This document shows positions 1 through 4,608 of a stretch of 64,000 nucleotides of DNA, piece by piece; within the stretch, counting starts at the first letter, position 1; the number at the start of each line of letters is the position of its first letter. The position numbers and the translations under genes are program-made. A model generated the notes under the pieces. The model saw only the letters and a program-made list of their open reading frames with translations. It was not told the DNA's origin and did not search any database. The stretch comes from Candidatus Latescibacterota bacterium (lineage in GTDB: Bacteria; Latescibacterota; UBA2968; UBA8231): contig OZ241362.1 in NCBI GenBank assembly GCA_965200315.1, positions 3,904,001-3,968,000 on the forward strand, given 5' to 3'.

Positions 1-1115
1 TTCAAGAGAATACGGCGTTCAAACAGCGTCTGTTCCCTTCGATATTTCGGCCGAATTCTTGCCCGATCTCTTACGCAAACCCGACGCCCAACTCCGCTCG
101 GCCAGCGCAGAGAAACCCACAGAATCGGCAAGTTTTGCCAACATACTCTACCGCAGTCCGATCATGGCGCGTTTGGTCAAAAAAGCGCAGCGAGTCGCAG
201 TGCGGAACGTTCCCGTTTTGCTCGAAGGCGAATCCGGCACCGGGAAAGAGCTTTTTGCCCGCGCCATTCACAAAGACAGTCTGCGAAAGAATAAACCGTT
301 TATCGCGGTAAACTGCGGTGCAATTCCGCCAAGTCTCGTAGAATCCGAACTGTTTGGACATGAAAAAGGCGCGTTTACCGGCGCAAATGCGCCGGCGCAA
401 AGGTCATTTTGAAGCGGCCAATAGTGGGACGCTCTTTTTGGATGAAATCGGCGAGTTGCCCAAAGACATGCAGGTCAAATTGTTGCGCGTCCTCCAAGAG
501 GGCGAGGTCGTCCGCCTCGGTGCATCCGAACCTATTTCCGTAAATGTACGCATTGTGGTGGCAACTAACCGGAATCTCGTGGAGGAAGTGCGCGAAGGAC
601 GATTTCGCGAGGACTTGTTTTATCGGATTGCCGTGGCCTATCTCAAAGTGCCGCCCTTGCGGGACCGCGAGGGAGATGTGGGGCGGCTGATTGACCATTT
701 GGTTGAACAGATCAACCAAGAAAACGAAAAACAGTCCGGACAGCCCGGCTATAAACGTAAAGAAATTTCCGCTGGAGCAAGAAATCTTCTTCTAAATCAC
801 TCTTGGCCGGGCAATATACGCGAATTGCAAAACACACTGAGACGCGCCATGGTGTGGGCCGACGGCGAAATGCTCGACAAACAAGATATTGAAGAGGCAC
901 TCTTGCCCCCTTACGACAAGGGCGGCGATATACTGAACCGCCCATTAGGTGGGGGATTTAGTCTAGAAGAGCTCCTTGGCGAAGTGGCCAGACACTATCT
1001 TCAGCGTGCCAACCAAGCGGCTGCGACGAAAAAGAAAGCGGCTGAACTAGTGGGAGCAACGAGTCCGCAGACATTTACCAACTGGCTGGCGAAGTACAAG
1101 GTGGAATGGACGTGA
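1..1115 (+). pseudogene. Sigma54-dependent enhancer-binding protein (AAA+ plus C-terminal HTH), 5'-truncated by the window and split by a +1 frameshift near 392
   Basis: Frame 2 is open from base 2 ([22 protein letters not shown]...) with Walker A GESGTGKE and [12 protein letters not shown]. It continues in the 354..1115 frame with [40 protein letters not shown] and the HTH KKAAELVG...TFTNWLAKY. Removing one base at about 392 gives the canonical [17 protein letters not shown] spacing. A sequencing error is possible. Confidence 0.88.
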
Positions 1116-1156
1116 GGTTTGGGGCAGGCCCTAGTTGTGCCGGCTTTACTCGCAAC

Positions 1157-1188
1157 GGTGAGTATCGAGTGATACTCACCATTTTTTT
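1157..1188 (+). terminator. Rho-independent terminator of the enhancer-binding protein gene
   Basis: GGTGAGTATC-gagt-GATACTCACC perfect 10-bp stem followed by ATTTTTTT. Confidence 0.85.
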
Positions 1189-1206
1189 GTCTGATAAGTA
1201 ACCTCA

Positions 1207-1262
1207 CCTAGGTGCGCGAGCGTTCTGCCCCCTGTGCAAGCCTCTGGCTCGCGCACCCAAGG
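1207..1262. repeat. REP-like inverted repeat
   Basis: GGTGCGCGAGC (1211-1221) and GCTCGCGCACC (1247-1257) are perfect inverted copies. The arm resembles the GGTGCGCGGGCGTC repeats at 60899-60956. Confidence 0.55.
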
Positions 1263-1488
1263 GCAGGAGAAAAGACCGGCATGTAGAGCAGGCGTCGTGT
1301 ACTTAGGTCTGGAAAACTAATTTGATAGACCGAAATCATCTAAAAAATTACGCTGACGCAAAAAAATTTACGTTCAATCACCGCCTCGATCTGAATTAGC
1401 GAAGAGGCCAGCGCGTTTCGGGCGTGAAGATTGGCACAAAACAAGGAAAAGTTGCCAAAGATCGAAAAAAATCAGGTTCAACTCGAAT

Positions 1489-1504
1489 TGGCACGGTATT
1501 TGCG
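1489..1504 (+). promoter_or_regulatory. Sigma54 (RpoN) -24/-12 promoter
   Basis: TGGCACG-GTAT-TTGC, with GG(1490-1491)-N10-GC(1502-1503), matches the TGGCACG-N4-TTGC consensus. It lies about 370 bp downstream of an enhancer-binding protein gene. Confidence 0.85.
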
Positions 1505-1560
1505 AGTAAATAGCGCGTAAACCAACTCCTAACTCTCAAATAGAAAGGAGGTAATCAATT

Positions 1561-1632
1561 ATGTGGCCAGCCATATTCCTCACATTGTTTATATATGCCG
1601 GCGAACGCATCATCGACAAGATCCTTGATTAG
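1561..1632 (+). CDS. Small hydrophobic peptide, 23 aa (MWPAIFLTLFIYAGERIIDKILD)
   Basis: Hand-translated. Strong SD AGAAAGGAGG about 9 nt before the ATG; first ORF after the sigma54 promoter. Confidence 0.65.
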   Translation: MWPAIFLTLFIYAGERIIDKILD

Positions 1633-1660
1633 CGGCTTTATAGCGTAGAGCTCAACATCT

Positions 1661-1690
1661 CGCAGGGCAGCACCAACTCGTTGCCCTGCG
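1661..1690 (+). other. Intercistronic RNA hairpin
   Basis: CGCAGGGCAGC-accaactc-GTTGCCCTGCG (one G-U pair), no U tail. Confidence 0.6.
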
Positions 1691-1730
1691 ATGATTCATC
1701 CCTTTAAGCCTCAATAGAAAGGAGCCGATA

Positions 1731-1889
1731 ATGGCGCGAAGAATTCGCAGCGACGCACGAATAAGAACCGTCGAGAAGAAGCTGGGCATCGGGAACAGCC
1801 TTACGAACCCCAACGGACGAAATGCTCGTTCCGATAAAAAACTTGGGAACCTGCGTAAGAGTTGGGAGAAATCTGGTAGGAAGAAATGA
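1731..1889 (+). CDS. Small basic protein, 52 aa (MARRIRSDARIRTVEKKLGIGNSLTNPNGRNARSDKKLGNLRKSWEKSGRKK)
   Basis: Hand-translated. SD AGAAAGGAG 6 nt before the ATG; internal duplicated RSD...KKLG motif. Confidence 0.75.
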   Translation: MARRIRSDARIRTVEKKLGIGNSLTNPNGRNARSDKKLGNLRKSWEKSGRKK

Positions 1890-1925
1890 GGTATCGCAAA
1901 TACTATAATGAAAGGAGGTGATTCT

Positions 1926-2003
1926 ATGAAAAAATGGCTACCACTTGCTATCCAGATAGCTATTGCCCTGCTAGACAATTGGCCGTCGAAGCGGCACTCG
2001 TAG
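1926..2003 (+). CDS. Small hydrophobic peptide, 25 aa (MKKWLPLAIQIAIALLDNWPSKRHS)
   Basis: Hand-translated. Very strong SD GAAAGGAGGTGA upstream of the ATG. Confidence 0.65.
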   Translation: MKKWLPLAIQIAIALLDNWPSKRHS

Positions 2004-2016
2004 CGTGGGCACTTAT

Positions 2017-2044
2017 CGGGGGCGGGGATTCATGCCCGCCCCCG
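2017..2044 (+). terminator. GC-rich hairpin closing the small-ORF cassette
   Basis: CGGGGGCGGG-gattcatg-CCCGCCCCCG perfect 10-bp stem, with only a weak, displaced U tract. Confidence 0.55.
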
Positions 2045-2055
2045 GGTACAGTTTC

Positions 2056-2084
2056 TTGACAAAGCGGCTAGTTGATTATAGACT
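2056..2084 (+). promoter_or_regulatory. Sigma70-type promoter for the ATPase operon
   Basis: TTGACA (2056-2061)-N17-TAGACT (2079-2084), overlapped by the inverted repeat GCTAGT...ACTAGC. Confidence 0.7.
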
Positions 2085-2116: not shown

Positions 2117-3640
2117 ATGGCTCTTACATCTATTACCATAGAAAACTTTAAGTGCATCGGCGACGCCGTGACCATTCCCATCCGCCCGATCACCTTGCTG
2201 TTTGGCAAAAACAGCTCGGGGAAATCGACGGTGTTGCAAGCCCTGTTATATATGCGAGAACGATTTATACCTTTCCATCAAGGCGAGACATTTGGCGTGG
2301 CAATCGCTCCGAGGGATTTGAAACCTATGAAAAACATACCTATTACGCTGGGAGACTTCCCTTCCTTAGTACATCGCCATGATATGAATCGAAAGATCCG
2401 TATCTGTCTTGAATTTGACTTAAAGGGAAAAAAATATGATTCTGTGGAGATAGAATTAGTAGTGGGTTGGGATGAAACAAAACAGATTGATTCTGTTGAG
2501 TCATATACATACACTTTGAATGGTGAAAAATCATTTCATGCTTTGAAAAAATCCCATCCGCTAGCTAAAGATCAGCAACTGAATGAGATAGAGGGTCGTC
2601 ATTATTCTATATCTGACGACAAACACGATGAGGAAGGATATGTATTTTTTTCAAATGGGGATTCTTCAATTATAAAAAAAACAGAAGAGTCCCCCTCAAA
2701 GACGCCTGAATCATACAAGTATAGACCTCGATTGGATTTAAGAGAGTGTCTTAATGACATTATAAAAGAATTAAACGACACTCGGCATATAGGCCCAACC
2801 CGAGAAGTGCCTCCTCGTCATTATATTGCACTCCAAAGGTCTGATGAGTCTCGGTGGGGAACCGGACTGGCAGCTTGGGATGCAATAGCACAAGATGCAG
2901 AATTGGCCAAAAAAGTAAATAGCTATGCTAAAAAGTTAAAACTTGGATACAGTTTCTTGCAGTCAACTAGAGTTTATCTTGATTTGAACGGCGAAATTAT
3001 AGCATATCTAAAGGAAATCTGCTCCTCTGATAAAGATATTAAAGTTAGTAACCTAAAAGAGCACGTTCTCGATCCTCTTGAGTCGCTATCTCGCCAGTAT
3101 CCGGTTCTACTTCAGGATGAAAACAGCAGTATAGAAGTACATCCCTTAGATGTTGGTTCTGGCATTTCTCAAGTCTTTCCGGTTCTCGTAGGTGCGCTAG
3201 ACCATAGTTCTAAAATATTTGCGGTTGAACAGCCGGAGCTTCATATTCATCCTGCTGTTCAAGTGGCATTAGGCGATATGTTTATTGATGGCATACGAAA
3301 TAGCAATCGCCCTATGCTCATCGAAACGCATTCTGAGCACTTGCTGTTGCGACTACTGCGGCGCGTACGTGAGACTAACATTCAAAACGAGAAAAAGTAC
3401 GAATGGAGACAAAGTGAAATGACCCCGCTGGTACGGGAGATGTCAGAGGACGCTATTCGGGACGCAGAAAACCAAAACTCGAAGGCTCACCAATTGACGC
3501 CAGAGGAGTTATCTGTGGTTTATGTTCGACCAACGCCAGAAGGAGTTAAATTCATCCCAATCAGCGTAACGCATGACGGAGACTTCTATGCCCCTTGGCC
3601 AGAAGGCTTCTTCGACGAACGCGTGAAGGAGCTTTTCTAA
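2117..3640 (+). CDS. ABC-type ATPase (AAA_15/AAA_21-like) with DUF3696-like C-terminus
   Basis: Walker A GKNSSGKS, signature VGSGISQ, Walker B/D-loop FAVEQPELHIHP, H-loop IETHSEH, terminal WPEGFFDE. Confidence 0.88.
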   Translation: MALTSITIENFKCIGDAVTIPIRPITLLFGKNSSGKSTVLQALLYMRERFIPFHQGETFGVAIAPRDLKPMKNIPITLGDFPSLVHRHDMNRKIRICLEFDLKGKKYDSVEIELVVGWDETKQIDSVESYTYTLNGEKSFHALKKSHPLAKDQQLNEIEGRHYSISDDKHDEEGYVFFSNGDSSIIKKTEESPSKTPESYKYRPRLDLRECLNDIIKELNDTRHIGPTREVPPRHYIALQRSDESRWGTGLAAWDAIAQDAELAKKVNSYAKKLKLGYSFLQSTRVYLDLNGEIIAYLKEICSSDKDIKVSNLKEHVLDPLESLSRQYPVLLQDENSSIEVHPLDVGSGISQVFPVLVGALDHSSKIFAVEQPELHIHPAVQVALGDMFIDGIRNSNRPMLIETHSEHLLLRLLRRVRETNIQNEKKYEWRQSEMTPLVREMSEDAIRDAENQNSKAHQLTPEELSVVYVRPTPEGVKFIPISVTHDGDFYAPWPEGFFDERVKELF

Positions 3641-3642
3641 TA

Positions 3643-4608
3643 ATGATCTGTGAATACGCCTTGGAGCCAGAACTTGTCGCAACGTGGTACGACGATCTAC
3701 ATTACCACTACTTTATCACACGTTTCGGTTTTGATCCTCAGGATGGTCGCGCAACGGGCCGTGTAGTAACTCAATATCCCAGCAGGAGTTGGAAGAAAAA
3801 AGTCTGGAATGCGTTTAATGCAAACTCTGGACAATCTAACTCCCGAATTGAACGGGGACGGATTACAGAGCTACTGAAACAGTTGGGGACACCAAGTACC
3901 AGTCGTTCCGCCAACACTTGGAAAGATCATCAATCTTGGCTTGAAAATGCTGAACAAGAGAATAAACGTCATCCATTTCATGCGATTTTGGCCCTTGACA
4001 ACCCACGAAACAATCCCCAAGTCGTGCGTGGGAACGATATGATCGAGAAGCCCCCGCCTCCAATTTGGCAGGTGCCTGGTGAAACCCCGATACAGAGTTC
4101 TGCTATTTCAATGGCAACACGCCTCGAGCCAATGCTGCGCTGTGCAACGCGAATACTCTTTATTGATCCATATTTTAGGGCGTCAGAATCGAGATGGCAG
4201 GACCCTTTACAAGAGTTCCTAAAGATCATCTGTGACGGTAGCCGTGAGGTTACACTCGAATACCACGCTTCAGCCAGCTACAAAGGGGCACCGAGTTGGA
4301 AACATTTTTCTAGGGAATGCCGATGTCGTCTTAGCCCTCTCATCCCCCAGGGTTTCACGCTCACTGTCCATCGTTGGGAGAATAGGAATAACGGACAACA
4401 GTTACATAATCGCTATATCCTTACTGACATCGGCGGCGTACTGTTCGGCGCCGGGCTCGCCGAAAGCGCTCCATATGATAAAGATGATATCCACCGCTTA
4501 TCCTATGAAGCCTGGCAGCAACGGTTAAATGATTACGGCAATTCTAATCCTGCATTTGATCCGGATCCGGATGGAGATCCAATAGTTATCAGAGGCACTA
4601 AACCATGA
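3643..4608 (+). CDS. Hypothetical protein with C-terminal PLD-like (MIT_C-type) domain, putative nuclease/effector
   Basis: ATG 2 nt after the ATPase stop. The motifs FIDPYF and LHNRYILTDIGGVLFGAGL resemble the DPY...HDR...GxGL pattern of MIT_C PLD-like domains. Confidence 0.7.
   Translation: MICEYALEPELVATWYDDLHYHYFITRFGFDPQDGRATGRVVTQYPSRSWKKKVWNAFNANSGQSNSRIERGRITELLKQLGTPSTSRSANTWKDHQSWLENAEQENKRHPFHAILALDNPRNNPQVVRGNDMIEKPPPPIWQVPGETPIQSSAISMATRLEPMLRCATRILFIDPYFRASESRWQDPLQEFLKIICDGSREVTLEYHASASYKGAPSWKHFSRECRCRLSPLIPQGFTLTVHRWENRNNGQQLHNRYILTDIGGVLFGAGLAESAPYDKDDIHRLSYEAWQQRLNDYGNSNPAFDPDPDGDPIVIRGTKP

Follow-up and report, generated by a model that had tools for sequence, protein, structure and literature searches.

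Layout of the locus

The locus described here lies at the start of a stretch of 64,000 nucleotides (nt) from a Candidatus Latescibacterota bacterium (assembly GCA_965200315.1, contig OZ241362.1, positions 3,904,001 to 3,968,000, forward strand), a stretch that we refer to as the window. Along one strand it holds the remains of a gene for a sigma-54-dependent activator, an intrinsic terminator, a predicted sigma-54 promoter, three very short open reading frames (ORF1, ORF2, and ORF3) with hairpins after the first and the last, a sigma-70-like promoter, and a gene pair encoding a defence-like ATPase and its partner. An earlier note, made from the sequence alone, had named the activator, terminator, promoter, three ORFs, and hairpins, and all of these were found where it placed them: The promoter it called perfect is an exact -24/-12 motif, and its clean terminator is a stem at 1157-1180 followed by ATTTTTTTGT. 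Two elements need amending. The activator gene does stand beside the small ORFs but is broken twice, and both hairpins are present and conserved but the one after ORF3 is not a textbook terminator. The features, with lengths in amino acids (aa), are as follows.

1-1115, plus strand: activator pseudogene, 3′ two thirds (Pfam, PADLOC frame pieces, alignment with orthologues)
1157-1190, plus strand: intrinsic terminator of the activator gene, 10-bp stem then T-run
1489-1503, plus strand: predicted sigma-54 promoter, -24 TGGCAC / -12 TTGC (exact motif, recurrence in relatives, rpoN present)
1561-1632, plus strand: ORF1, 23-aa hydrophobic peptide MWPAIFLTLFIYAGERIIDKILD, with Shine-Dalgarno site GAAAGGAGG (conservation; ratio of nonsynonymous to synonymous polymorphism, pN/pS, 0.45)
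1660-1691, plus strand: hairpin 3′ of ORF1, 10-bp stem, without U-run
1731-1889, plus strand: ORF2, 52-aa basic protein of a wide unnamed family (homologues, pN/pS 0.175, AlphaFold2)
1926-2003, plus strand: ORF3, 25-aa single-helix hydrophobic peptide MKKWLPLAIQIAIALLDNWPSKRHS (conservation, pN/pS 0.48)
2017-2044, plus strand: GC-rich hairpin 3′ of ORF3, imperfect terminator or RNA-stabilising stem (folding, covariation)
2056-2084, plus strand: sigma-70-like promoter TTGACA-17-TAGACT, 5′ of the ATPase gene (-35 TTGAC invariant in 11 loci)
2117-3640, plus strand: AAA_15 / DUF3696-type ATPase, 507 aa, defence-like (Pfam, PADLOC)
3643-4608, plus strand: 321-aa partner of the ATPase, PLD-like fold in its C-terminal half (AlphaFold2, Foldseek)

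A predicted sigma-54 promoter behind the activator gene

The promoter sequence, TGGCACGGTATTTGC at 1489-1503, is the sole exact TGGCAC-N5-TTGC in the window, where 0.21 are expected. This count alone is weak evidence, as at least one exact match turns up in 20 of 100 shuffles of the window; the whole genome (5.36 Mb) has 29 of them, where its base composition would predict about 12.5. Strong support for the predicted promoter comes from recurrence of the motif at the same place in related loci. The site has the -24 GG and the -12 GC at exact spacing, is conserved at orthologous sites, and lies in a genome with rpoN (Sigma54_DBD, 204.5 bits, inside a 490-aa open frame).

Related loci were collected by searching 168 genomes of the phylum with the PADLOC activator model PDLC01995, which gave 30 full-length loci, taken with 1.5-kb flanks; every one of the 168 genomes has some sigma-54 activator. 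A relaxed -24/-12 motif, scanned for between -50 and +900 of the activator stop codon, occurs in 23 of the 30 loci, compared with two of 30 on the opposite strand and one of 30 in the gene interior. All of the 23 motifs but one fall 0-62 nt after the stop codon, the 23rd being at +343. In a second phylum (401 genomes sampled, 19 full-length activator loci) the motif lies 0-21 nt after the stop in 13 loci, and on the opposite strand in none of the 19. The earlier note had proposed that homologous activators would be accompanied by this motif, which is the case in most loci of both phyla, and we regard a putative promoter directly after the activator stop codon as a trait of the family. An ATPase of AriA/PDC-M55A-like type is encoded downstream in 17 of the 30 loci, all 17 of which carry the promoter; in the seven of these without small ORFs, the 16-nt promoter is invariant (16/16 columns).

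The spacing between gene and promoter varies at both extremes. In several second-phylum loci (L090-L099 and L102), the motif begins with the very first base past the stop codon, and the next large ORF follows at about +28 with a restriction-type N-terminus, so that the predicted transcript has almost no leader. The window itself has about 370 nt between activator stop and promoter (1116-1488), where relatives have 0-62 nt. Within this spacer lie the terminator and, at about 1211-1257, an inverted repeat of 11 bp. A past rearrangement is suggested by the last part of the spacer (about 1420-1488), which is similar to the 3′ end of the activator gene in relatives. In L016 (genome G007), about 20 nt from the 3′ end of the activator gene occur as a tandem repeat immediately ahead of the promoter, perhaps as a site bound by the activator, perhaps as a scar of recombination.

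An interrupted RtcR-like activator

Window positions 1-1115 encode a sigma-54 interaction domain, an AAA lid, and a C-terminal helix-turn-helix (HTH), split over two frames; Sigma54_activat and AAA_lid_14 of Pfam are matched in two frames, at 2-412 and 354-1115. In the upstream sequence of the same genome, the gene begins about 407 nt ahead of the window (at L007 9593) with a CARF-type N-terminus, the kind of sensor domain that the earlier note had suggested for the activator. Alignment with five orthologues identifies the gene as a pseudogene with two +1 frameshifts: a one-base insertion in a variable loop of the CARF domain, at a site about 265 nt upstream of the window, and a surplus G at position 391 of the window itself. 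We judged an assembly error unlikely, and two frameshifts within one 1.5-kb gene likelier to be real decay, because ORFs of at least 250 aa cover 88% of the window, many of them 600-1080 aa long. Since the activator is interrupted in this way, the sigma-54 arm is most likely locked off in this genome. A second genome, G126 (locus L020), has a broken activator too (393 + 94 aa); there a transposase-like gene is inserted between the ATPase and its partner, and the locus looks to be decaying. The two broken activators hint that the sigma-54 arm may be costly and easily lost.

The three frame pieces match the PADLOC model RtcR_PspF2--CARF_AAA_HTH (PDLC01995), whose name we take to come from Makarova 2020 (the CARF classification in Nucleic Acids Research), at profile positions 1-54, 43-252, and 251-481. 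An intact orthologue matches the same profile almost from end to end (positions 1-479 of 481, E = 9.9e-189), well ahead of the sister models PspF1 (1e-68) and RtcR (1.8e-57). Against the NCBIfam equivalog model for RtcR (NF038308), the orthologue L018:4235-5734 scores 332 bits, below the cut-off of 650, and RtcB (PF01139) was not detected in the window genome, G000, which is 94.7% complete. For these two reasons we class the activator, by its sequence, as RtcR-like but not RtcR.

A Cmr2-type Cas10 match was found in six of the 30 genomes with an intact activator, a count in which Csm1-type genes may have been missed; such a system is not required, so type III CRISPR was dropped as the main idea for the source of the signal. 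The window genome has two Cmr2/Cas10-type genes above the NCBIfam cut-off (G000:C1:582488-584152 and 3009604-3010995), so type III CRISPR-like systems do exist in it, far from the window.

The small ORFs

Each of the three small ORFs is preceded by GAAAGGAG. This sequence, followed within 4-10 nt by ATG, occurs 37 times in the genome, counting both strands, and ORF1-3 are the only triple within 400 nt; the strong Shine-Dalgarno sites reported for ORFs of 23, 52, and 25 aa thus form a cluster that is unique in the genome. No match to ORF1-3 was found in Pfam, NCBIfam, or PADLOC, nor any paralogue in the window genome.

By its substitution pattern, ORF2 is clearly coding: Over 10 distinct DNA copies its pN/pS is 0.175, with both shifted frames above 1, and variable columns at codon positions 1, 2, and 3 number 12, 15, and 32. 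For ORF1 the ratio is 0.45 (seven copies) and for ORF3 it is 0.48 (nine copies of the 24-codon type, leaving out the divergent L058, the TTG-start L066, L027, and the 40-aa forms of L022 and L023). In both, the second codon position is the least variable (in ORF1, four of 19 codons). All copies keep a start codon, the strong Shine-Dalgarno site, its spacing, their length, and the peptide core (IYAGERIIDKI in ORF1; the tail DNWPSK in ORF3), a retention that we consider stronger support for these two ORFs than their pN/pS values. ORF3 keeps its Shine-Dalgarno site and length across two families of the phylum, even through a change of start codon.

Small ORFs are conserved beside homologous activators, as the earlier note had foreseen, though each is found in a different subset of the loci. 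ORF3 is the most widely kept, in nine of the 17 ATPase-linked loci, and in four loci (L059, L066, L067, and L074) it stands alone under the promoter. ORF2 occurs in six of the 17, and seven have no small ORF. ORF1 is present in five of the 30 related loci, namely four of the ATPase-linked 17 and L072, whose sequence ends 476 nt after the activator with ORF1 and ORF2 visible. No comparable small ORF was found in the 19 loci of the second phylum, so the insert appears to be restricted, among the genomes searched, to the phylum of the window. The cassette together with the activator is seen in one phylum only, since L017 (genomes G141/G170), labelled Gemmatimonadetes publicly, was placed in the window genome's genus.

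Two variants of the arrangement were observed. In L025/L058 (G004), a unit of ORF1 plus hairpin is tandemly duplicated between promoter and ORF2, the first hairpin copy having a decayed 3′ arm. In L067 (G003) and L074 (G023), where ORF2 is absent, the sigma-70 box and the ATPase gene are separated by a further ORF, which encodes a hydrophobic peptide of 29-32 aa and has a strong Shine-Dalgarno site; its position behind the sigma-70 promoter would tie small peptides to the ATPase unit.

ORF2 belongs to a large family: 19 close homologues share 57-92% identity with it, and 225 clusters (50% identity) are reached at E ≤ 0.001. Within the phylum, 14 of 168 genomes have a match to it, a weak one in three cases, and a related-locus search with the closer ORF2 alignment gave seven metagenome loci; none was found in viral contigs. 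In two loci, L022 and L023, a sigma-70-like promoter precedes the genes for a 49-aa ORF2 homologue and for a related membrane peptide of 40 aa; no activator is nearby, and a 433-442-aa protein with an XRE-type HTH N-terminus is encoded upstream of the pair on the same strand. Genome G036 has a pair of this 49-aa/40-aa type about 320 kb from its activator locus, and more distant family members (L024, L026, L029-L033) stand alone. A complex prediction for the 49-aa protein and 40-aa peptide of L022 returned a score of 0.00, which is no verdict, and was used neither way.

The AlphaFold2 model of ORF2 is confident (predicted local distance difference test score, pLDDT, 90.9). In Foldseek searches it matched nothing at E ≤ 0.001 in PDB (best E 0.87) or in BFVD (best E 0.26); weak ubiquitin-like and Erwinia-phage hits were disregarded. 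The family profile had no hits to PDB sequences, and the protein Atlas returned only unnamed clusters. Because some members (P0026, P0034, P0057, P0065, P0070, P0076, and P0101) have tails of 60-90 aa that are rich in Lys/Ala/Pro and look histone H1-like, our guess is that the family binds nucleic acid.

Hairpins and the sigma-70 promoter

The hairpin at 1660-1691, behind ORF1, shows one compensatory change between the window and its relatives. For the hairpin behind ORF3, the 62-nt segment containing it folds at -28.7 kcal/mol in the window. Across the 11 aligned loci that have ORF3, with decayed hairpins left out, 95.7% of cells are paired and six of the 13 pairs are changed on both sides; on four of five covariation measures none of 500 shuffles reaches the observed value, and on the fifth (further pair types) two of 500 do. 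In all 11 loci there is no U-run directly after the stem, hence the departure from a textbook terminator. In the window, TTTCTT begins 8 nt past the stem, and in the other loci a U-rich stretch likewise lies several nucleotides past it.

The seven ATPase-linked loci without small ORFs have the promoter, a decayed hairpin, the same sigma-70 box, and the ATPase gene. In the five of them where the anchor was found, the 62-nt hairpin segment has a folding energy of -7 to -11 kcal/mol. Between window positions 1000 and 2300 no Rfam family comes near threshold, the best match having 19.9 bits where the gathering score is 75. For the 606-nt leader, predicted folding is stronger than in any of 20 shuffles (z = -3.2).

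The ATPase and its partner

The ATPase matches AAA_15 of Pfam (7.8e-25) and several PADLOC models, of which PDC-M55A scores best (1.1e-47), followed by NsnB (4.3e-40), HEC-03B (4.2e-32), and AriA (1.2e-27). The gene for the partner begins 2 nt past its stop codon. None of 474 homologues of the partner has a Pfam domain, and the partner itself matches no PADLOC model. Its AlphaFold2 model (pLDDT 91.9) has a PLD-like fold in the C-terminal half, for which Foldseek finds PLD, Nuc, NucT, SauUSI, BfiI, and Zucchini at E = 8e-5 to 2.5e-3; with 1f0i, 1byr, 6ehi, and 7clg the probability is 1.00 (E = 8e-5 to 1.5e-3) over about 160-200 columns. The conserved motif is LH[ND]RYILTDIGG, with an invariant H-x-R-x4-[TD]. 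The catalytic HxK(x)4D of PLD enzymes is missing, Arg replacing Lys, as is a Pfam PLD match. A defence-like ATPase/PLD pair, as the earlier note described these neighbours, therefore agrees with the PADLOC matches of the one gene and the fold of the other. In six ATPase loci of 6 kb, a second gene follows the ATPase gene every time; its product has the PLD fold in the window and is of a different type in L016 and L018.

Probable targets of the sigma-54 promoter

The predicted rule of the family is an activator gene, a promoter, and then defence genes. The cargo is the ATPase pair in the window and HsdR-like genes in L048, L049, L057, and L062; in the second phylum it consists of restriction-type genes, beginning about 28 nt past the activator stop. 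The small ORFs look like optional, lineage-specific inserts ahead of the usual cargo and not like a stand-alone system, because seven of the 17 ATPase-linked loci, as well as the second phylum, do without them. This goes against the earlier note in one respect, its proposal that micro-proteins are the whole output of the promoter: The 17 loci with an ATPase gene within 1.5 kb downstream all have the promoter and seven have no small ORF, and the second phylum has restriction-type genes in the place of small ORFs. In those seven loci the ATPase operon is the only possible target of the promoter, since only a decayed hairpin intervenes. Taken together, we think that the locus is probably an inducible defence-island operon, of the kind predicted for RtcR-like CARF activators, with a lineage-specific micro-protein insert.

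In intact relatives, we infer, the CARF domain of the activator would sense a nucleotide or RNA-end signal, and the AAA+ domain would remodel sigma-54 RNA polymerase at the promoter directly after the activator's own gene. The first products would be one or two single-helix peptides, which may insert into the membrane, and the 52-aa basic protein, which is probably nucleic-acid-binding. Partial read-through of the hairpin would then boost the pair of AriA-like ATPase and PLD-fold partner, which would also be expressed at a basal level from the sigma-70 promoter and might act in defence. In the window genome, only the sigma-70-driven ATPase pair would be expressed.

Some observations weigh against this interpretation. 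In 24 of the 30 genomes whose activator is intact, the model used finds no Cmr2-type Cas10. The pN/pS values of ORF1 and ORF3 are only moderate and one shifted frame scores similarly, a test that is weak alone. The seven loci without small ORFs are close kin from one genus and represent roughly one event. Finally, the ORF3 hairpin is strong (-25 to -31 kcal/mol for the 62-nt segments), covaries, and is followed by the conserved sigma-70 promoter; hairpin and promoter together may act as insulation, and the sigma-54 transcript may end there.

An alternative that follows the earlier note is unlikely in our view, at about one chance in four: The sigma-54 promoter would drive the micro-proteins only, with termination at 2017-2044, the ATPase/PLD pair as a separate sigma-70 unit, and the peptides as effectors; these might, for instance, be toxins that depolarise the membrane, with the 52-aa protein in the role of modulator or antitoxin. 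A covarying 13-bp hairpin ahead of a conserved TTGACA promoter is what such an arrangement would have, and in five loci the hairpin has decayed exactly where small ORFs are absent, which ties it to the ORFs. The genome-unique cluster of three very strong Shine-Dalgarno sites fits as well, as do the four loci with ORF3 alone, where a toxin could be silenced by a promoter without basal activity, and the separate sigma-70-driven pairs of L022 and L023, with their 52-aa-type gene and 40-aa membrane peptide. The alternative is harder to reconcile with the seven of 17 ATPase-linked loci that keep the promoter without any small ORF, with the second-phylum promoter that feeds restriction-type genes directly, and with the lack of a U-run directly after the hairpin stem.

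A more speculative proposal, which we hold to be improbable, concerns the intact relatives: On a signal of infection or RNA damage, the CARF sensor would set off, through sigma-54, a burst of single-helix membrane micro-toxins (of ORF3 type, sometimes of ORF1 type) together with the 52-aa nucleic-acid-binding mini-protein. If true, such a system would correspond, at the level of transcription, to membrane effectors fused with CARF, giving dormancy or abortive infection ahead of or alongside the ATPase/PLD nuclease, and the 52-aa family would be a widespread, unnamed partner or antidote of small membrane peptides.

It is very unlikely that ORF1 and ORF3 are leader-type elements that, with the hairpins, tune sigma-54 transcription into the ATPase operon, or are untranslated features of a structured leader, with only the 52-aa protein real: The position of each hydrophobic ORF directly before a conserved hairpin, the tandem ORF1-plus-hairpin unit of G004, the moderate coding signal, and the folding of the 606-nt leader would all suit such elements, but the conserved peptides, the quiet second codon position, and the start codon and Shine-Dalgarno site kept in every copy do not, and neither a single-amino-acid run of the kind found in classical attenuators nor an Rfam family at threshold was found.

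Under the interpretation that we favour, of a defence operon with an inserted cassette, a predicted promoter placed exactly behind the activator stop codon and conserved in two phyla makes the regulon testable. The insert would mean that what such a switch produces first can come from genes that standard annotation does not see, and the 52-aa protein opens a wide, nameless family (225 clusters) with a confident fold.

Comparison with known systems

In our literature searches, whose coverage of subscription journals and supplements was incomplete, we found no account of micro-proteins encoded in a sigma-54 cassette next to an activator of this type. CARF/NtrC/HTH proteins that resemble RtcR but are unlinked to Rtc, and often stand beside restriction-modification genes, have been described (PMC4012209, Makarova 2014), and RtcR homologues are reported at the head of defence superoperons (CoCoNuT; PMC11090510, Bell 2024). 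That such activators adjoin defence genes has thus already been predicted; in the portions of these two papers available to us, sigma-54 control is predicted from domain architecture, the promoters and direct targets are not pinned down, and neither a mapped promoter nor a small-ORF cassette is described. With the superoperons, as these portions present them, the present family shares the PADLOC activator family, the activator 5′ of same-strand defence genes, and restriction-type cargo elsewhere, the HsdR-like cargo of other members matching both accounts; it differs in having, here, an AriA-like ATPase and PLD-fold cargo with inserted micro-proteins.

The RtcR/rtcBA operon has the same N-terminal CARF, sigma-54 AAA+, and C-terminal HTH domains and a promoter adjoining the activator gene; here the cargo consists of small ORFs and a defence-like ATPase pair, in a genome in which RtcB was not detected. 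Published work on the ligand of RtcR concerns the E. coli and Salmonella proteins (PMC7790460, PMC9650030), not the present family.

PARIS, PDC-M55, Nsn, and HEC-03 resemble the downstream unit in their ABC/AAA_15-type ATPase (E = 1e-47 to 1e-27) and in being two-gene units with a putative nuclease-fold partner. An identity with PARIS (AriA/AriB) was rejected: Other models outscore AriA, and the partner is PLD-like, not Toprim/DUF4435.

TisB and DinQ are stress-induced small membrane toxins of type I toxin-antitoxin systems, and Cam1 is a membrane effector with a CARF sensor, activated by cyclic oligoadenylate (cOA). The ORF1 and ORF3 peptides fit a small hydrophobic toxin by composition, and the likeness to these systems extends to a length of about 25 aa, one hydrophobic helix, charged ends, and a tightly gated promoter. 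TisB and DinQ differ in that no antisense RNA was found here; the sole minus-strand promoter-like site (1930 to 1902, 9/12 matches) would start downstream of the ORF3 ribosome-binding site. The present family has a CARF sensor upstream, as Cam1 does, but its link from sensor to putative effector would be transcriptional and not a fused domain.

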